In this document: piece after piece, positions 1 to 49,438 of the stretch
Numbering within the stretch: the first letter of the stretch is position 1
Layout: every line of letters starts with the position of its first letter
Source of the DNA: a virus
Lineage: Duplodnaviria > Heunggongvirae > Uroviricota > Caudoviricetes
Direction: 5' to 3' (one strand)
Length of the DNA stretch: 49,438 bases
IMG/VR virus record: IMGVR_UViG_2861048470_000005
Translations under genes and position numbers: made by a program
Notes under the pieces: model-generated
The model's input: the letters and a program-made list of their open reading frames with translations, nothing else
Databases searched by the model: none
Told to the model about the DNA's origin: nothing

Positions 1-1131
1 TCAAATGACCAGTTTTTTCCATTCCTTACCGCGTGCGTCGTTGTAAATATCGGTCATTTTTTGATTCGAATGGCCTAGCAAAATTTTGGTATCAACCCCC
101 TGCTCTCTTAACAATCGCTCTGATAAAGATCTCTGCTCATGGAAAGAGGGAGGGGTGCCATTAGCACGCCAGTTGTAATCCACAGAATCCCGGGCTTTTT
201 TAAATGCAACGGTTAATGTTGCTGGCTTAACCATCCCGCCGCGCTTAGCTGTCCCTTTCGCGTGATGGTGGTGCAATAGCCACGGACTAAGAACGCAATC
301 GCGGCAGGATGACACCACATCATCCAGGGTGAGATTTAATTTATCGCAACGCAGAGCCAGAGGGATGGCAATCCGGGTTCCTGTTTTTTGCTGTTCGACA
401 TGAAGATAACCATCCCGGATATCCGAAAATTGCATTTTGCAAATATCTGAAAGGCGCTGGCCTGTCATCAGTGCCAGCAGCATACCGCGCTGTAAAAAGT
501 AACCATCCTTTTCCGCTGCGTTATAAATCATCATCCACTCATCAAAAGTCAGTCGCTGTCTTGATATCCGCACCTGCGGTTTTTTTGCCGATTCTGCAGG
601 GTTAAAGCCTGGCGGGACATCGCCCGTTTGCTGAGCTTCCCGGAAAACATCGATCAGTACCTTCCTGAAAATTTGTCCCATTCTGTTATGTCCTCTGGCC
701 TTGTACTCTTCCAGTACTGATACCACATCTTTTACGGTTATGGCATCTAACGGTCTGGTGCCAAAACGTTCATCAAATACCCTGAGAGGGGCCGCTTTCT
801 GTTTCAGCGTGTTGAGTTTGATCTCGCCGTTTTCATATCTTTCCTGTTGAATTTTTCTGTAATTATTCAGAAAAATGGTAACGGTTGATGAACCGCCGGT
901 ATCACTAATAATTTTCTCCTGCAGACTGAGCATTTGTTCCATTTGCTGCCGGGCAAGACGGCTGTTCGCTTCTGCTGCAATAGTTTCTGCCAGTTTCTGG
1001 TCAATACTGCCGAGACCGTGATTTTTGCCTGTTATGGGATGCCTGTAACGCCAGTAAACTTTGTTATTTCTTTTGTCAAAATACGGAGATAATCCCGGAA
1101 CATTGGTTTTATATTTTCGCGGGCGCGCCAT
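1..1131 (-). CDS. int: Tyrosine-type site-specific integrase (lambda Int family)
   Basis: 376-aa minus-strand ORF at the prophage left edge. C-terminal region (...HEQRSLSERLL...LLGHS...DIYND) resembles the lambda Int catalytic domain as I recall it. Excisionase-like gene lies immediately upstream on the same strand. Confidence 0.9.
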   Translation of the reverse strand: MARPRKYKTNVPGLSPYFDKRNNKVYWRYRHPITGKNHGLGSIDQKLAETIAAEANSRLARQQMEQMLSLQEKIISDTGGSSTVTIFLNNYRKIQQERYENGEIKLNTLKQKAAPLRVFDERFGTRPLDAITVKDVVSVLEEYKARGHNRMGQIFRKVLIDVFREAQQTGDVPPGFNPAESAKKPQVRISRQRLTFDEWMMIYNAAEKDGYFLQRGMLLALMTGQRLSDICKMQFSDIRDGYLHVEQQKTGTRIAIPLALRCDKLNLTLDDVVSSCRDCVLSPWLLHHHHAKGTAKRGGMVKPATLTVAFKKARDSVDYNWRANGTPPSFHEQRSLSERLLREQGVDTKILLGHSNQKMTDIYNDARGKEWKKLVI

Positions 1132-4467: not shown

Positions 4468-4927
4468 TGTTTTTGGTTTTAACTGTTCCGCGTGCGCTCA
4501 GCCGCATTCACCACATCACAAAATTCACTTTAAAAAGGGCGGCAGAGCAGTCACGGAGTAAAACTGATACCGCCAAACGTCACCAGAAAATTGATAACAG
4601 AGGGCGTTGCAGCGGAGTTGTCACTTAAGCGTATGGTCAACCTGACAACCCGGTGTCCTCAACGGAGGAAGGAATAACCCCGCCATACTTACCGCCGCGC
4701 CATTTCGCGGAGTGCCACAACCGGAAGCGCACGGTCGAACTAAATTTAACGACACCGTACAGAGAGACCAATTTCGCCGTGCGCTTTCGCTTTATGCCCT
4801 GACTTTTCAGGGACATATCCTTTCAGTAAACTGTCAGTGCCGGATGTTCACCCGTGTCCGGCGCACGCACTCCACCTGACCCGTGGAGAACTCCTTAATT
4901 ACCAACCTTAGCTTCGTTGGTTAGCTA

Positions 4928-16579: not shown

Positions 16580-16655
16580 GGCCCTTTAGCTCAGTGGTGA
16601 GAGCGAGCGACTCATAATCGCCAGGTCGCTGGTTCAAATCCAGCAAGGGCCACCA
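16580..16655 (+). tRNA. tRNA with anticodon CAU (Met, or Ile2 if lysidinylated), encoded CCA
   Basis: 76-nt sequence folds by hand into a cloverleaf: acceptor GGCCCTT/AAGGGCC, anticodon loop cuCAUaa, T-loop GGTTCAAATCC, 3' CCA. Confidence 0.8.
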
Positions 16656-16755
16656 TCACAAACCGCCATTAGCTTATCAGGAAGAGCAGACGACACGATA
16701 ACAGGGTTGTTGGTGCGGGGGCGGGTCCCCGATGGCGGTCCATTATCGGTATTCA

Positions 16756-16829
16756 GCGTTGTTAGCTCAGCCGGACAGAGCAATTGCCTTCTAAGCAATC
16801 GGTCACTGGTTCGAATCCAGTACAGCGCG
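16756..16829 (+). tRNA. tRNA-Arg (anticodon UCU)
   Basis: 74-nt cloverleaf: acceptor GCGTTGT/ACAGCGC (one G-U pair), anticodon stem ATTGC/GCAAT with loop ctTCTaa, T-loop GGTTCGAATCC; no encoded CCA. Confidence 0.8.
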
Positions 16830-16942
16830 CTATATTCATTCTTCCAGATTCCTTCCGGCAGAGCCTTATACTGAAATATACCTGGCTCAGGATATTGTTG
16901 AAAATATTTTATGTTTGTCAAAAATAAAAGTTCTGTTAAGTA

Positions 16943-17296: not shown

Positions 17297-17687
17297 ATAC
17301 ATATCTGGATTATCACTTGTTACGGTAAAAAGTGATTGCTTACTGTTTTTGTGAGTGGCATTGCAGCAGCCGGATAATGTCAGTGCTGGCTGACGGTGTG
17401 CTGGTGGCGGGTGTGGTGGTTGTTGCTTTCCCGTTGCTGAAAAAGAAAACGCCAGACTGTTAGCCGGGTATCAGTTAGCGGGAGAAATTTTTAAATACTT
17501 CACAATTCAGGCGGTTGACTGTTGTCTGGTTTGCGGGGAGTTTGTTAAAAGAAACTGGCATGGTGAATCCCCCTGTGCGGAGGGGCAATCAGCGAGTAGG
17601 TATATGGGATAATCGCGGATTCAGGTGCTGGTACTGAATTCACCGGGAGGCACCCGGCACCATGCAATGGCACATAGCGCCACTCTC

Positions 17688-17716
17688 CAGCCCCTCTCCG
17701 GAGGGGCTGTTTATAT
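17688..17716 (+). terminator. Candidate rho-independent terminator
   Basis: Hairpin CAGCCCCTCTCC-GG-AGGGGCTG followed by TTTATATTGATTTTG. Confidence 0.4.
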
Positions 17717-17743
17717 TGATTTTGTCAGATGTGAGTAAACTCC

Positions 17744-39901: not shown

Positions 39902-42900
39902 ATGGGCAAAGGTGGCGGCAAGGCGCACACACCGCGTGAGGCGAAAGACAATCTCAAATCCACGCAGATGATGAGCGTGATTGATGCGATTGGTGAGGGA
40001 CCGATAGATGGCCCGGTGAAAGGCCTGCAGAGTATTCTGGTGAACAAAACCCCGCTGACGGACACGGACGGTAATCCCGTGATACACGGTGTGACCGCGG
40101 TCTGGCGTGCCGGGGAGCAGGAGCAGACACCACCGGAAGGCTTTGAGTCCTCCGGCTCTGAAACTGTACTGGGTGTCGAAGTGACCAGGGCAAAACCGGT
40201 AACACGCACCATTACGTCAGCGAACATTGACCGCCTGCGGGTGACCTTCGGGGTGCAGTCACTGGTGGAGACCACGTCAAAGGGTGACCGTAATCCGTCC
40301 TCTGTCCGTCTGCTGATTCAGTTACAGCGTAACGGTAACTGGGTGACAGAAAAGGATGTCACCATTAACGGCAAGACCACCTCACAGTTCCTGGCCTCGG
40401 TGATTCTGGATAATCTGCCTCCCCGCCCCTTTAACATCCGGATGGTCAGGGAGACGGCGGACAGCACCACGGACCAGCTGCAGAACAGAACGCTGTGGTC
40501 GTCATACACCGAAATCATCGATGTGAAACAGTGCTACCCGAACACGGCCATTGTGGGGATGCAGGTGGATGCGGAGCAGTTTGGTGGTCAGCAGATGACG
40601 GTGAACTACCATATCCGCGGTCGCATCATCCAGGTGCCGTCAAACTATGACCCGGAAAAACGCACGTACAGTGGTATCTGGGACGGCAGTCTGAAACCGG
40701 CATACAGCAACAATCCGGCCTGGTGTCTGTGGGACATGCTGACTCACCCGCGCTACGGCATGGGAAAACGTCTGGGGGCGGCGGATGTGGACAAGTGGGC
40801 GCTGTATGCCATCGGGCAGTACTGCGACCAGATGGTGCCGGATGGCTTCGGGGGCACCGAGCCGCGGATGACCTTCAATGCGTACCTGGCACAACAGCGT
40901 AAGGCGTGGGATGTTCTCAGTGATTTCTGCTCGGCGATGCGCTGTATGCCGGTATGGAACGGCCAGATGCTGACGTTTGTTCAGGACCGCCTGTCGGATG
41001 TGGTGTGGCCGTACACCAACAGCGATGTGGTGGTGGATGATAACGGCGTGGGGTTCCGCTACAGCTTCAGTGCCCTGAAGGACCGGCACACGGCGGTGGA
41101 GGTGAATTACACCGACCCGCAGAACGGCTGGCAGACCTCCACGGAGCTGGTGGAAGACCCGGAAGCCATACTGCGCTACGGGCGCAATCTGCTGAAGATG
41201 GACGCGTTCGGCTGTACCAGCCGCGGTCAGGCCCACCGTGCCGGACTGTGGGTGATAAAGACCGAACTGCTGGAAACGCAGACGGTGGATTTCACGCTCG
41301 GGTCTCAGGGGCTGCGGCACACACCCGGTGACATTATTGAAATCTGTGATAATGACTATGCCGGGACCCTGACCGGCGGACGTGTCCTGTCCATTGATGC
41401 TGCCACCCGCACCCTGACGCTGGACCGTGAGGTTACCCTGCCGGAGACCGGTGCCGCCACGGTGAACCTGATTAACGGCAGCGGTAAGCCGGTGAGTGTG
41501 GACATCACCGAACACCCCGCGCCGGACCGGATACAGGTCAGTACCCTGCCTGATGGTGTGGAGACATACGGGGTGTGGGGACTCTCCCTGCCGTCACTGC
41601 GCCGTCGCCTGTTCCGCTGTGTCTCCATCCGGGAAAACACGGACGGCACCTTTGCCATCACGGCGGTGCAGCACGTACCGGAAAAAGAAGCCATCGTGGA
41701 TAACGGTGCCCGCTTTGAGCCGCAGTCAGGTTCCCTGAACAGCGTCATCCCACCGGCAGTGCAGCACCTGACGGTGGAGGTGAGCGCAGCTGACGGCCAG
41801 TATCTGGCGCAGGCGAAATGGGACACGCCGCGGGTGGTGAAGGGTGTGCGCTTCAGTCTGCGCCTGACCAGTGGTAAGGGAACGGATGCCAGACTGGTGA
41901 CCACCGCCATCACCGCAGACACGGAGCACCGTTTCAGCGGCCTGCCGCTCGGGGAATACACCCTGACGGTGCGGGCGATAAACAGCTATGGCCAGCAGGG
42001 TGAACCTGCCACCACCACCTTCCGGATTGCCGCACCGGCAGCACCGTCGCGGATTGAGCTGACGCCGGGCTATTTTCAGATAACCGCCACGCCGCATCTT
42101 GCCGTTTATGACCCGACGGTACAGTTTGAGTTCTGGTTCTCGGAAAAGCGGATTGCGGATATCAGGCAGGTTGAAACCGCAGCCCGCTATCTTGGCTCGG
42201 CGCTGTACTGGATAGCTGCCAGTATCAATATCAAACCGGGCCATGATTATTATTTTTATATCCGCAGTGTGAATACTGTTGGCAAATCGGCATTTGTGGA
42301 GGCTGTTGGCCAGCCGAGTGATGATGCATCCGGCTATCTGGATTTTTTCAAAGGAGAGATAGGGAAAACCCATCTGGCTCAGGAGTTGTGGACGCAGATT
42401 GATAACGGTCAGCTTGCGCCTGACCTGGCTGAAATCAGGACGTCCATTACGGATGTCAGCAATGAAATCACGCAGACCGTCAATAAAAAACTGGAAGACC
42501 AGAGTGCAGCGATCCAGCAGATACAGAAGGTTCAGGTTGATACAAATAATAATCTGAACAGCATGTGGGCTGTGAAGCTGCAGCAGATGCAGGACGGACG
42601 CCTTTATATTGCGGGTATCGGTGCCGGTATTGAGAACACCCCCGACGGCATGCAGAGTCAGGTGCTGCTGGCGGCAGACAGGATTGCGATGATTAATCCT
42701 GCAAATGGCAACACAAAACCGATGTTTGTTGGTCAGGGTGATCAGATATTCATGAACGACGTGTTCCTGAAATACCTGACGGCTCCCACCATTACCAGCG
42801 GCGGTAATCCTCCGGCATTTTCCCTGACACCGGACGGGCGGCTGACGGCGAAAAATGCCGATATCAGCGGTAACGTGAATGCGAACTCCGGGACGCTCAA

Positions 42901-43375
42901 CAACGTCACGATTAACGAGAACTGTCGGGTTCTGGGAAAATTGTCCGCCAACCAGATTGAAGGCGATCTCGTTAAAACAGTGGGCAAAGCTTTCCCCCGG
43001 GACTCCCGTGCACCGGAACGGTGGCCATCAGGGACCATCACCGTCAGGGTTTATGACGATCAGCCGTTTGACCGGCAGATTGTTATTCCGGCGGTGGCAT
43101 TCAGCGGCGCTAAACATGAGCGGGAGAATAACGATATTTATTCGTCATGCCGCCTGATAGTACGGAAAAACGGTGCTGAAATTTATAACCGTACCGCGCT
43201 GGATAATACGCTGATTTACAGTGGTGTTATTGATATGCCAGCTGGTCGCGGCCACATGACGCTGGAGTTTTCGGTGTCAGCATGGCTGGTGAATAACTGG
43301 TATCCCACAGCAAGTATCAGCGATTTGCTGGTTGTGGTGATGAAGAAAGCCACCGCAGGCATCAGTATCAGCTGA
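39902..43375 (+). CDS. Central tail fibre / host specificity protein J
   Basis: 1157-aa ORF in the lambda J position (lambda J is 1132 aa as recalled). Confidence 0.9.
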
Positions 43376-43442: not shown

Positions 43443-44042
43443 ATGCGTAAAGTTTGTGCAGCCATTTTGTCCGCAGCCATCTGTCTGGCCGTATCCGGTG
43501 CGCCTGCATGGGCGTCTGAGCAGCAGGCCACACTGAGCGCAGGGTATCTTCATGCCCGTACGAACGCTCCCGGCAGCGATAATCTGAACGGGATTAACGT
43601 GAAATACCGTTATGAGTTTACGGACACGCTGGGGCTGATTACGTCATTCAGTTATGCCAACGCTGGAGATGAGCAAAAAACGCATTACAGCGATACCCGC
43701 TGGCATGAAGATTCCGTTCGTAACCGCTGGTTCAGCGTAATGGCGGGGCCGTCTGTGCGCGTGAATGAATGGTTCAGCGCGTATGCGATGGCGGGTGTGG
43801 CTTACAGCCGTGTGTCGACTTTCTCCGGGGATTATCTCCGCGTAACTGACAACAAGGGGAAAACGCACGACGTGCTGACCGGAAGTGATGACGGTCGCCA
43901 CAGCAACACGTCTCTGGCGTGGGGGGCTGGCGTGCAGTTTAACCCGACCGAATCCGTGGCCGTTGATGTCGCTTATGAAGGCTCCGGCAGTGGCAACTGG
44001 CGCACTGACGGTTTCATCGTGGGTGTTGGTTATAAGTTCTGA
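43443..44042 (+). CDS. lom: Lom outer-membrane protein (Ail/Lom family beta-barrel)
   Basis: 199-aa ORF with a signal peptide (MRKVCAAILSAAICLAVSGAPAWA) and a C-terminal ...GVGYKF beta-barrel signature, in the lambda lom position. Confidence 0.85.
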   Translation: MRKVCAAILSAAICLAVSGAPAWASEQQATLSAGYLHARTNAPGSDNLNGINVKYRYEFTDTLGLITSFSYANAGDEQKTHYSDTRWHEDSVRNRWFSVMAGPSVRVNEWFSAYAMAGVAYSRVSTFSGDYLRVTDNKGKTHDVLTGSDDGRHSNTSLAWGAGVQFNPTESVAVDVAYEGSGSGNWRTDGFIVGVGYKF

Positions 44043-47100: not shown

Positions 47101-47520
47101 AAATCCACGAATAACACCGGGGCGCATACGCACAGTCTGAGTGGCTCTACGGGGTCTGCCGGTGTTCATACTCATGGTAATGGTATTCGTTGGCCAGGAG
47201 GCGGCGGTTCTGCGTTAGCATTTTATGATGGCGGTGGGTTCACTTATGTCCAGAATTCACAGTATCAAGTAAGCCCGGAGACTTCTTCCTATAGATCGTA
47301 TTATCAACGTATTCAGACACAGTCAGCAGGTGCTCATACCCACTCGCTGTCTGGTACTGCAGCAAGTTCTGGCGCACATGCACATACTGTAGGTATTGGT
47401 GCGCATACGCACTCCGTTGCGATTGGTTCACATGGACACACCATCACCGTTAACGCTGCGGGTAACGCGGAAAACACCGTCAAAAACATCGCATTTAACT
47501 ATATTGTGAGGCTTGCATAA
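44107..47520 (+). CDS. stf: Side tail fibre protein Stf (mosaic; Ala/Ser-rich repetitive shaft, His-rich C-terminal region)
   Basis: Starts [26 protein letters not shown]... and ends ...[31 protein letters not shown], both matching lambda Stf as recalled. Has a long A/S/T-rich low-complexity shaft and GAHxHS repeats near the C-terminus. Confidence 0.85.
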
Positions 47521-48104
47521 TGGCATTCAGAATGAGTGAACAAGCACGGACCATAAAAATTTATAATCTGCTGGCCGGAACTAATGAATTTATTGGTGAA
47601 GGTGACGCATATATTCCGCCTCATACAGGTCTGCCAGCAAACAGTACCGATATTGCACCACCAGATATTCCTGCTGGCTTTGTGGCTGTTTTCAACAGTG
47701 ATGAGGCATCGTGGCATCTCGTTGAAGACCATCGGGGTAAAACGGTTTATGACGTAGCGTCAGGGGACGAGTTATTTATTTCTGAACTCGGTCCGTTACC
47801 GGAAAATGTTACCTGGTTATCGCCGGAAGGGGAGTTTCAGAAGTGGAACGGCACAGCCTGGGTGAAGGATACGGAAGCAGAAAAACTGTTCCGGATCCGG
47901 GAGGCGGAAGAAACAAAAAACAACCTGATGCAGGTAGCCAGTGAGCATATTGCGCCGCTTCAGGATGCTGCAGATCTGGAAATTGCAACGGAGGAAGAAA
48001 CCTCATTGCTGGAAGCCTGGAAAAAGTATCGGGTGTTGCTGAACCGTGTTGATACATCAACTGCACCTGATATTGAGTGGCCTACGAACCCTGTCAGGGA
48101 GTAA
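47520..48104 (+). CDS. tfa: Tail fibre assembly protein Tfa
   Basis: 194-aa ORF overlapping the stf stop (TAATG) with the conserved C-terminus ...[26 protein letters not shown]. Confidence 0.85.
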
Positions 48105-48118
48105 TCATTGGGATTATG

Positions 48119-48151
48119 CCGCAGCACGTCTTAAGCAAGAACGTGCTGCGG
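48119..48151. terminator. Perfect 11-bp inverted repeat (bidirectional terminator candidate) between convergent tfa and methyltransferase genes
   Basis: CCGCAGCACGT-cttaagcaaga-ACGTGCTGCGG, 15 nt after the tfa stop and 8 nt before the minus-strand methyltransferase stop. Confidence 0.5.
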
Positions 48152-48158
48152 TTGGATG

Positions 48159-48827
48159 CTATTTTTTCCCTGAAGCGGAAAACATTACTACAGTACCTTG
48201 AACCTTGGTTTTAACATTCTCGAAATGCTCTGAGAGTATATGTGTTAAGCCTTCTTCGGAATCTTTTGTGTTTGAAAAGATGCCTTTCTGATTGTAAATG
48301 CGCATCAGTTTTTGACCGAAGCTATTGTGCACAACTCCATCGCCAAGAATTGTGGCTCCGTATAGAGTTCCATCGTCAGTTAAGGCCTGCGCCGCATTGC
48401 GTATTACACAGCTTTTTGTAGATATATTTCCAGGCAGGCAGTGAAGAAGGTAAAACATGGAAATGGAATCAAATTGACCATGTAACGCCGCGGGATAAGG
48501 TTCAAAAACATCATGGCTAATTTTATGTTTAATTTTTGATTCCCCAGCCCTTGTAGATGCCGCGTTCAGGCTAACTTCGTTCAAATCCATTAAAGATATC
48601 AGACTACTCTCAGGTACGTGAGTAAGGTAAAACCCAGTTCCAACACCAATATCCAGATGGTTGTTACCTAAATGTTCCAGAAAGTGTGGAAGAAGGTGTT
48701 CCTTTGTAGGACATCCCCATGCAAGCCGATTTGATACTCCCAAAACCCACCAGTCATAAAGCTTTAGGGTAAGTGGTGTGTAAATTTTAGCCCCATCATC
48801 TGTGTTTTTTTTCATTGATTTCACCAT
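48159..48827 (-). CDS. Class I SAM-dependent methyltransferase (moron)
   Basis: 222-aa minus-strand ORF with SAM-binding motif I (LDIGVGTGFY), in AT-rich DNA, oriented against the surrounding late genes. Confidence 0.7.
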   Translation of the reverse strand: MVKSMKKNTDDGAKIYTPLTLKLYDWWVLGVSNRLAWGCPTKEHLLPHFLEHLGNNHLDIGVGTGFYLTHVPESSLISLMDLNEVSLNAASTRAGESKIKHKISHDVFEPYPAALHGQFDSISMFYLLHCLPGNISTKSCVIRNAAQALTDDGTLYGATILGDGVVHNSFGQKLMRIYNQKGIFSNTKDSEEGLTHILSEHFENVKTKVQGTVVMFSASGKK

Positions 48828-48883
48828 GTTATAGTTTTATTTGTGAATTAAATCAATTATGGCGATGAATTACAAGGGGTTAA

Positions 48884-49153
48884 ATGCTGCCGCAGCATAG
48901 CGATATTGAAATAGCCTGGTATGCTTCGATACAGCAGGAGCCGAATGGCTGGAAGACCGTCACCACACAGTTCTACATCCAGGAATTCAGTGAGTATATT
49001 GCGCCACTGCAGGATGCTGTAGATCTGGAAATCGCAACGGAGGAAGAAAGATCGTTGCTGGAGGCATGGAATAAATATCGGGTATTGTTGAATCGTGTTG
49101 ATACATCAACTGCACCTGATATTGAGTGGCCTGCAAATCCTGTCAGGGAGTAA
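48884..49153 (+). pseudogene. Second tail fibre assembly gene remnant (Tfa C-terminal homolog)
   Basis: 89-aa ORF whose C-terminal ~55 aa (...[51 protein letters not shown]) duplicates the C-terminus of the tfa at 47520..48104; its N-terminus is unrelated and short. Confidence 0.5.
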
Positions 49154-49267
49154 TCATTGGGATTATGCCGCAGACACGTCGTATGCAGGAACGTGCTGCG
49201 GTTAGTTTGTGAGCTTTCGATAGTGGTTGTTATTTTTGCCCTTATTTGTTCCGGAGGCCATGGTTCA

Positions 49268-49438
49268 ATGGTCCGTCTGCCCCCTGTGGTGATGTCAGCA
49301 AAATCAGCCACTGCGCGAACCACAATAGCCCGGGAAGATGCTGAAGATCACCAGGTAAAGCTATCAGCGCAGAAACTGGAAGAACTGCTCGCATCAATGG
49401 TTAAGGATGAGGTTGATCGCAATGATGGGATTTATTGA
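49268..49438 (+). CDS. Hypothetical small protein
   Basis: 56-aa ORF (MVRLPPVVMSAKSATARTTIAREDAEDHQVKLSAQKLEELLASMVKDEVDRNDGIY) preceded by GGAGG at 49253-49257; its stop codon is the last three bases of the window. Confidence 0.3.
   Translation: MVRLPPVVMSAKSATARTTIAREDAEDHQVKLSAQKLEELLASMVKDEVDRNDGIY

Follow-up and report, generated by a model that had tools for sequence, protein, structure and literature searches.

A YbcY-family methyltransferase gene as optional cargo between two diverged tfa 3' segments at the right end of a lambdoid prophage

The right end of the lambdoid prophage recorded as IMGVR_UViG_2861048470_000005 carries a gene for a class I S-adenosylmethionine (SAM)-dependent methyltransferase of the YbcY family, bracketed by two direct repeats that derive from the 3' end of the tail-fibre-region gene tfa. 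We analysed this locus within the window, that is, the whole recorded stretch of 49,438 nucleotides (nt), which is a lambdoid prophage running from an integrase open reading frame (ORF; 1-1131, minus strand) through J, lom, stf and tfa (Table 1). In this arrangement, the late operon ends with stf, tfa and a strong hairpin, and a segment of ~1,050 bp follows it, with the methyltransferase on the minus strand and then a chimeric ORF that carries a second, diverged tfa 3' allele. By gene order and alignment, the segment is the tfaD-ybcY-tfaX module of DLP12, the cryptic prophage of Escherichia coli K-12. An earlier examination of the DNA letters alone (the original prediction) had singled out the locus as a methyltransferase moron between tfa repeats, and in this report we describe the repeats, the distribution of the module, the traces of recombination around it and the probable nature of the enzyme.

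Table 1. Coordinates and supporting matches of the features at the right end of the prophage
Feature	Position	Strand	Evidence or remarks
J	39902-43375		
lom	43443-44042		
stf, side tail fibre, 1139 aa	44101-47520	+	StfR-type N-terminus; Ala/Ser/Thr-rich middle; lambda-Stf-like C-terminus
tfa, intact, 194 aa, last late-operon gene	47520-48104	+	Pfam Caudo_TAP E=1.9e-44; phrog_105 E=8.8e-101
Direct repeat, copy 1	47928-48153	+	Last 59 tfa codons (58 aa + stop) plus downstream hairpin
GC-rich hairpin between convergent tfa and methyltransferase genes	48118-48152	both	Folding: + strand -28.6 kcal/mol (z=-4.4), - strand -25.4 kcal/mol (z=-4.2)
YbcY-family class I SAM-dependent methyltransferase, ORF of 222 aa	48159-48827	-	Pfam Methyltransf_12/23/11; phrog_2132
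Predicted sigma-70 promoter region of the methyltransferase	48828-48883	-	Two consensus candidates
Candidate promoter A	48856-48828	-	TTGATT 48856-48851, 17-nt spacer, TATAAC 48833-48828
Candidate promoter B	48883-48856	-	TTAACC 48883-48878, 16-nt spacer, CATAAT 48861-48856
Chimeric 89-aa ORF, tfaX type	48884-49153	+	phrog_2341, full-length, E=4e-61; phrog_3893, residues 3-37; Caudo_TAP positions 75-130 only
Direct repeat, copy 2	48977-49203	+	Tfa C-terminal coding module plus hairpin 49167-49202
Tail-fibre-related gene fragment, DUF4376 type, pseudogene	49157-49438	+	phrog_7703 and phrog_1141 (tail fiber protein), residues 34-93

A repeat search and pairwise alignment defined the boundaries of the two repeat copies, which are identical at 201 of 227 aligned positions (88.5%) and differ in length by a single 1-nt indel, located in the hairpin. 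Direct repeats of about 210 bp and about 90% identity, composed of the tfa 3' end and its hairpin, had been predicted, and this description holds, except that the left edge lies ~17 nt to the left of the predicted one. Both copies contain an identical 35-nt core (48048-48082 and 49097-49131), which has no third occurrence in the window, whereas 100 shuffles gave an expectation of 0. The copy 1 hairpin is likely a bidirectional terminator, which would end both convergent transcripts, that of tfa and that of the methyltransferase; the copy 2 hairpin folds at -24.2 kcal/mol (z=-2.1). The repeated unit is the conserved C-terminal module of Tfa (Caudo_TAP positions 75-130) together with the terminator, a combination common to nearly all E. 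coli tfa paralogs, and the module was matched in 5224 of 5426 genomes at a median of three places per genome. The differences between the copies are mainly synonymous, with a synonymous divergence (dS) of 0.41 and a nonsynonymous to synonymous ratio (dN/dS) of 0.18; judged by this comparison, the copies are two distinct tfa alleles that have been brought together. Because copies with a dS of 0.41 cannot be a duplication made by the insertion event, and because the N-terminus of the second ORF is foreign, an in-place tandem duplication or target-site duplication was ruled out. The tfa 3' region also matches a family of the Rfam database: RF02111 ('IS009') matches 47863-48061 (plus strand), wholly inside the tfa coding sequence, with 225 bits (gathering score 117), and matches again at 48907-49110 (plus strand), on copy 2, with 112.5 bits. 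Rfam lists 'IS009' as an RNA gene, and it has been counted in small RNA (sRNA) surveys of pathogenic E. coli; it appears to be the conserved 3' coding module of tfa and no independent sRNA, and the 'IS009 sRNA' entries of such surveys should be taken with caution.

The two ORFs that end in the repeat differ in how much of Tfa they contain. The intact tfa product covers positions 1-130 of the 131 in the Caudo_TAP profile (PF02413), a full-length Tfa match, and is ~92% identical to lambda orf-194. The second ORF is matched only by the C-terminal part of the profile given in Table 1; its residues 33-89 are the Tfa C-terminus, and its residues 1-32 come from the unrelated small-ORF family phrog_3893, members of which occur without the Tfa part in phage Ayreon and at the start of an intact 79-aa ORF in Klebsiella phage Kp4882-3. 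On these alignments, the 89-aa ORF is an in-frame fusion of a foreign N-terminus with a Tfa C-terminus; what had been called a truncated second tfa-like ORF does end in repeat copy 2, as predicted, but its 32 N-terminal residues are not Tfa and it is hence a chimera. We considered whether this ORF, and not the methyltransferase, could be the functional element, for instance as a decoy against the tail-fibre assembly of superinfecting phages, with the methyltransferase as a passenger. The ORF does belong to a recurrent phage family (phrog_2341, over its full length), its Tfa part shows the low dN/dS against the resident tfa, and binding data from K-12 predict a divergent tfaX promoter. However, the Prokaryotic Genome Annotation Pipeline (PGAP) flags it as a pseudogene, it has an internal stop in K-12 and is broken into two ORFs in phage 2G7b, in many relatives a different tfa variant takes over its right end from 49108 or 49130, and a low dN/dS can be the legacy of a past as a full tfa, so a functional decoy seems improbable to us. 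A perfect 15-nt palindrome (ATGCTGCCGCAGCAT, 48884-48898) overlaps the start codon of the chimeric ORF and abuts the predicted methyltransferase -35 element, just upstream of it, and GCCGCAGCA is common to this palindrome and the left arm of the tfa hairpin. Because its folding as RNA is no better than that of shuffled sequence (z=0.03), the palindrome may be a protein-binding site or the relic of a hairpin.

Comparison with K-12 and its derivatives supports the identification with DLP12. Positions 47666-49130 of the window match strain DH10B at 97%; in the PGAP annotation of that strain, tfa lacks its 5' end, the class I SAM methyltransferase gene is frameshifted and the tfa remnant contains an internal stop, with appY and ompT coming next. 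The methyltransferase gene itself is 99% identical in DNA to its counterpart in MG1655-derived strains and its product belongs to the YbcY family; the annotation of phage PhiR26_1 calls it 'putative uncharacterized protein YbcY'. Over its full length the protein belongs to phrog_2132 (E=3.5e-156), as does the 89-aa ORF to phrog_2341. Gene order, orientation, sequence, hairpin and the divergent ybcY/tfaX spacer are the same in both prophages. In K-12, however, tfaD is 5'-truncated and ybcY is frameshifted, whereas tfa and the methyltransferase gene are intact here; the 3' end of the tfaX-type ORF past 49130 is a different variant; and DLP12 continues with appY-ompT-envY, in contrast to the DUF4376 remnant and the attR in ompW found here. 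The arrangement is already known, being annotated in K-12, in RefSeq (as class I SAM-dependent methyltransferase) and in PHROGs, and it is extremely common: of 5426 complete E. coli genomes, 3798 (~70%) carry the methyltransferase gene at an identity of at least 95%, some of them in as many as four copies, and the interval 47900-49260 is covered to at least 80% in 2735 genomes. The module is in this sense a textbook case of lambdoid mosaicism, and one in which prophages carry a well-conserved methyltransferase into ~70% of complete E. coli genomes. In phages PhiR26_1 (L001, 5974-8598) and 2G7b (L002, 5383-8007), the ybcY cassette is followed by a minus-strand alpha/beta hydrolase of 464-494 aa and by ompT, and this hydrolase-ompT block is a larger cargo related to the appY-ompT region of DLP12.

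The methyltransferase gene is supported as optional accessory cargo, or moron, and is not core phage content. Lambda has one tfa with its hairpin, directly followed by ea47, and no methyltransferase. As a query for empty sites we used an artificial deletion product in which 47300-48153 is joined to 49204-49438, and this matched in a single piece, at 99.0-99.5%, in EFF60, 190693 and NMBU-W13E19, at the same ompW site; a shorter junction query was also used, for which filled alleles cannot attain 80% coverage. By the shorter query, twenty E. coli genomes have the empty site, with a single tfa and no methyltransferase, against ~376 that are filled and have the same flanks. Filled and empty alleles differ by exactly one repeat unit plus the cargo, with the junction inside the repeat and flanks that are otherwise 98-99% identical. 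A further allele is a precise deletion scar. In phage Ayreon, which was isolated on K-12, window positions 47973-48194 are joined straight to 48854-48970, so that the methyltransferase ORF is gone and a 36-nt stub is kept (MF807953.1; L018, 3253-3587); the stub is the gene's last 36 nt, and in this scar the tfa arm, hairpin and stub run directly into the promoter spacer and the beginning of the chimeric ORF. In E. coli CH4797 (NZ_CM166347.1, 4036289-4036324), nothing but this 36-nt stub remains of the gene. Lambda, the 20 empty ompW-site prophages and the Ayreon scar bear out the predicted moron character of the gene, and the natural filled, empty and scarred alleles are ready near-isogenic comparisons. 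The original prediction had also envisaged how it could fail, namely that the repeat might be only the conserved Tfa C-terminus of any paralog and the methyltransferase a core phage gene; the first part describes the repeat correctly, and the second is contradicted by the empty alleles.

The positions at which relatives lose homology point to the repeats as the sites of exchange. Among genomes, homology to the module begins on the left at 47900 (the query start), 47939, 47973, 47984 or 48007, or at the hairpin (48113-48119) in O157:H7-type prophages, and it ends on the right at 49108, 49130 or 49225; the points at which relatives diverge thus lie within the two tfa-derived arms, and the hairpin variant of 48118-48152 travels with the cassette. 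Behind unrelated tail-fibre genes, the same cassette with a short left tfa arm is found in the Nesevirus phages 2G7b and ev243, whose methyltransferase is at least 95% identical. Homology that starts inside the arms behind unrelated tail-fibre genes is the pattern expected if the arms supply the homology for general recombination, and recombination within the arms is well supported. Our data suggest a model whereby the two arms would act as portable homology, through which general homologous recombination could move the cargo between lambdoid phages or delete it. A repeat without any role in mobility, arising because two tfa paralogs happen to be neighbours around a stable and vertically inherited methyltransferase, would agree with the exact match between the repeat and the module conserved among all tfa paralogs, and with the fact that gain and loss cannot be oriented. 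That explanation is nevertheless very improbable: filled and empty alleles at one attachment site differ by just one repeat plus the cargo, the Nesevirus homology begins inside a tfa arm, and some genomes carry as many as four copies of the gene. An invertible segment was likewise ruled out, as the repeats are direct and there is no invertase.

The methyltransferase gene differs in composition from its surroundings and has candidate expression signals of its own. Its GC content is 0.408 compared with 0.514 for the whole window, and the prediction of an AT-rich methyltransferase gene with a DIGVGTG motif, on the opposite strand between the copies, is confirmed by this value, by the Pfam scores and by the motif itself. 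Translation probably starts at the second ATG (48815) and yields a protein of 218 aa: homologs begin at M5, positions 1-218 of the phrog_2132 profile align with residues 5-222, and this ATG is preceded, at a distance of 5 nt, by a GGTGA Shine-Dalgarno sequence. In K-12, genomic SELEX (systematic evolution of ligands by exponential enrichment) placed sites for the RpoD holoenzyme and for H-NS in the spacer between ybcY and tfaX and named the element TTGATT-17-TATAAC (PMC3946193), and the same element is found here at 48856-48828. The methyltransferase may be expressed in the lysogen from its own H-NS-bound promoter. In the literature, ybcY and its Salmonella ortholog STM1638 have incidental mentions alone, and no functional study of either was found; a K-12 ybcY mutant behaved in a Hha toxicity assay in the same way as the other unaffected prophage mutants (PMC2408971).

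The enzyme has the hallmarks of class I methyltransferases. Motif I is present as LDIGVGTG (residues 58-65), the acidic D81 is invariant in 29 homologs, and the Pfam families Methyltransf_12 (35.8 bits, cutoff 30), Methyltransf_23 (28.4, cutoff 27) and Methyltransf_11 (23.6, cutoff 21.2) all match. The AlphaFold2 model (mean confidence, pLDDT, 89.8) has a seven-stranded alpha/beta fold like that of solved class I methyltransferases, and 59 columns are invariant in the 29 homologs, which are 56-90% identical; YDWWV, DxGxGTG, HD, HCLPG and YNxKGIFSN are among the invariant segments. The top Foldseek match was a phosphatidylethanolamine N-methyltransferase of bacterial origin (8ys9, E=3e-12); next came juvenile-hormone acid methyltransferase (JHAMT), phosphoethanolamine methyltransferases and SgvM. 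All of these structural neighbours methylate small molecules or lipids, and none stands out clearly as the best match. Profile searches of PDB sequences found JHAMT (1e-5) and UbiG, the viral structures of BFVD yielded generic methyltransferases alone, and the curated NCBIfam families RquA (18.9 bits against 175) and CpaM (16 against 180) stayed below their cutoffs. PmtA (8ys9), JHAMT (7ec0), UbiG (4kdr), DhpI (3ou2) and Coq5 (4obw) share with the YbcY model a Rossmann-type class I fold with an N-terminal helical lid, and small-molecule and lipid class I methyltransferases also share its length of ~200-230 aa and SAM motifs I-IV; they differ from YbcY, however, in being only 12-21% identical to it, and the YbcY family has its own motifs YDWWV, HCLPG and YNxKGIFSN. 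The resemblance to UbiE/COQ5, RquA and PmtA is one of fold level only.

These matches bear on the substrate. A homology and structure search of the kind proposed in the original prediction points to a small molecule or lipid and not to DNA, and we lean towards this class of substrate. Orphan DNA methyltransferases are often carried by phages, and YbcY does have the SAM-binding motif I, so that a DNA methyltransferase shielding phage or host DNA from restriction could be envisaged. A regular-expression search of the protein found neither a DPPY-like motif ([DNS]PP[YFW]) nor a PCQ motif; the one ENV, at residue 203, falls in the region of the C-terminal strand and lacks a PCQ partner; no DNA-methyltransferase Pfam family matched at E<=0.01; and PADLOC gave no significant match for the methyltransferase. 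On these motifs and Pfam results, on the small-molecule fold neighbours and on genomic context, the DNA methyltransferase was rejected as a candidate, and with it the suggestion of a host-modification or anti-restriction function; we give DNA as a substrate hardly any weight, and a shield against restriction next to none. Methylation of RNA (tRNA or rRNA) or of a protein is unlikely, though less so than that of DNA, because the best sequence and Foldseek matches are enzymes of small molecules or lipids (JHAMT, UbiG, PmtA, PfPMT); in addition, YbcY has no extra RNA-binding domain, and CmoA itself acts on a small molecule. Since structural matches cannot settle the class of substrate, the remaining weight is allotted to none of these.

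The distribution of the family suggests an origin outside the phages. Orthologs with 56-65% identity stand alone on the chromosomes of Enterobacter, Salmonella (STM1638) and Yersinia, so lambdoid phages of E. coli appear to have captured the YbcY-family gene from a host; closer homologs, with 64-79% identity, lie in island-like or otherwise unrelated contexts. No operon partner is shared across the contexts in Enterobacter, Salmonella, Yersinia, Klebsiella and one further contig. The only regulatory neighbour seen for the family is in Salmonella, where STM1638 adjoins the sRNA gene rydC and cybB (PMC11340327) and is located directly upstream of both (L008, 7001-8464); RydC activates cfa, the gene for a lipid methyltransferase, and the link to STM1638 is probably coincidental. 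The enzyme may act on a small molecule or lipid, and not on DNA, as a host-derived fitness or conversion gene. We further speculate that YbcY could be a lysogenic-conversion methyltransferase spread by phages, with a lipid or metabolite of the host envelope as its substrate and the tfa-derived arms as its vehicle between lambdoid phages, a conjecture to which we assign little probability; phosphatidylethanolamine N-methylation, as by bacterial PmtA, the top Foldseek match, is one candidate activity. If true, surface, stress or host-interaction properties would be changed in the ~70% of E. coli strains that carry the YbcY gene.

Considered as a whole, we hold it likely (a probability of roughly 0.8) that the locus is the right end of an ompW-integrated lambdoid prophage with optional ybcY cargo of the DLP12 type, that the tfa arms serve as homology and that the enzyme acts on a small molecule or lipid. 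Several points weigh against this. At diagnostic single-nucleotide polymorphisms (SNPs), lambda and each of the eight empty alleles examined resemble copy 1 on their left side and copy 2 from the hairpin rightwards, and seven of the eight empty alleles switch before 48084; this pattern fits an ancestral single-copy state as well as it fits deletion, since the copy-1-type hairpin travels with the cassette and an ancestral single-copy allele would show the same SNPs. Independent deletions with different crossovers, entertained for the first three empty alleles, were dropped when five more and lambda proved to share one pattern. EFF60 alone looks like a secondary loss, because it keeps the cassette-linked markers at 48084-48089 without the cassette. 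The prediction that the cargo arrived or was lost by recombination between tail-fibre modules is thereby upheld as regards the junctions and breakpoints, which lie inside the repeats, and leaves gain and loss without an orientation. In addition, the promoter calls are consensus matches in a region (48828-48883) that has no excess of such sites over shuffles, and the SELEX and H-NS data come from K-12 and from another prophage than this one. Finally, the K-12 copy of the gene carries a frameshift, and deletions have removed the gene repeatedly; any benefit it confers is therefore conditional.

The module can be set beside two classes of known systems. Phage morons include lom and bor of lambda and the morons of HK97 and HK022, the latter reportedly described by Hendrix and colleagues. 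The ybcY cargo shares with morons the presence of an extra gene that is absent from close relatives, a lower GC content (0.41 vs 0.51) and a strong flanking hairpin, with a candidate promoter of its own, and its place is where the tail-fibre region ends, beside the equivalent of the b region; whereas morons occupy a clean intergenic slot, the ybcY cargo is bracketed by ~226 bp of diverged tfa 3' sequence. Invertible tail-fibre segments, such as the G segment of Mu, the C segment of P1 and the P segment of e14 with their invertases Gin, Cin and Pin, similarly place duplicated tail-fibre or tfa 3' modules beside tail-fibre genes. Here, by contrast, the repeats have a direct orientation, and instead of an alternative functional gene set the second copy is just a remnant; the only inverted pair found by the repeat search is a 15-nt match at chance level, and neither the ORF list nor the annotation of strain 120899 has an invertase ORF at the locus.

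The surrounding prophage shows further features of the right end. In strain 120899, the closest genome, the prophage ends at an attR in ompW just past the window, the module is the last intact cargo before it, and the order continues with the DUF4376 remnant, the ompW fragment, yciEFG and the trp operon; PGAP describes the remnant (49157-49438) as 'DUF4376 domain-containing protein, internal stop, missing N-terminus'. The right end, which continues beyond the window (L013, 7351-7968), is a run of tail-fibre remnants, with the tfa chimera and the DUF4376 fragment preceding the ompW fragment that marks attR, and in NMBU-W13E19 and EC15 a Rha-family regulator and an ash gene additionally lie between the DUF4376 remnant and attR. 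Upstream of tfa, stf is ~92% identical in DNA to the 3' end of lambda orf-314, and its product is named 'prophage tail fiber N-terminal domain-containing protein' by PGAP in strain 120899. Its segment 44400-45500, which encodes the N-terminal third of Stf, is an Ala/Ser/Thr-rich region of low complexity with a GC content of 0.60-0.66 and a strong AT skew, and Stf proteins of 1008, 1056 and 1139 aa among otherwise near-identical prophages suggest expansion and contraction of repeats in this region. A 45-aa ORF (48077-48214, plus strand), which overlaps the tfa stop codon, the hairpin and the methyltransferase gene's 3' end, is annotated by RefSeq as 'hypothetical protein' in strain 120899 and as 'nucleocapsid protein' in K-12 derivatives, and is almost certainly a spurious call. 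Elsewhere in the prophage, the RNAs that exceed their Rfam gathering scores are the antisense RNA DicF (4537-4588, minus strand), a pair of tRNA-Met and tRNA-Arg(UCU) genes (16580-16830, plus strand) and the sRNA STnc100 (17529-17718, plus strand).

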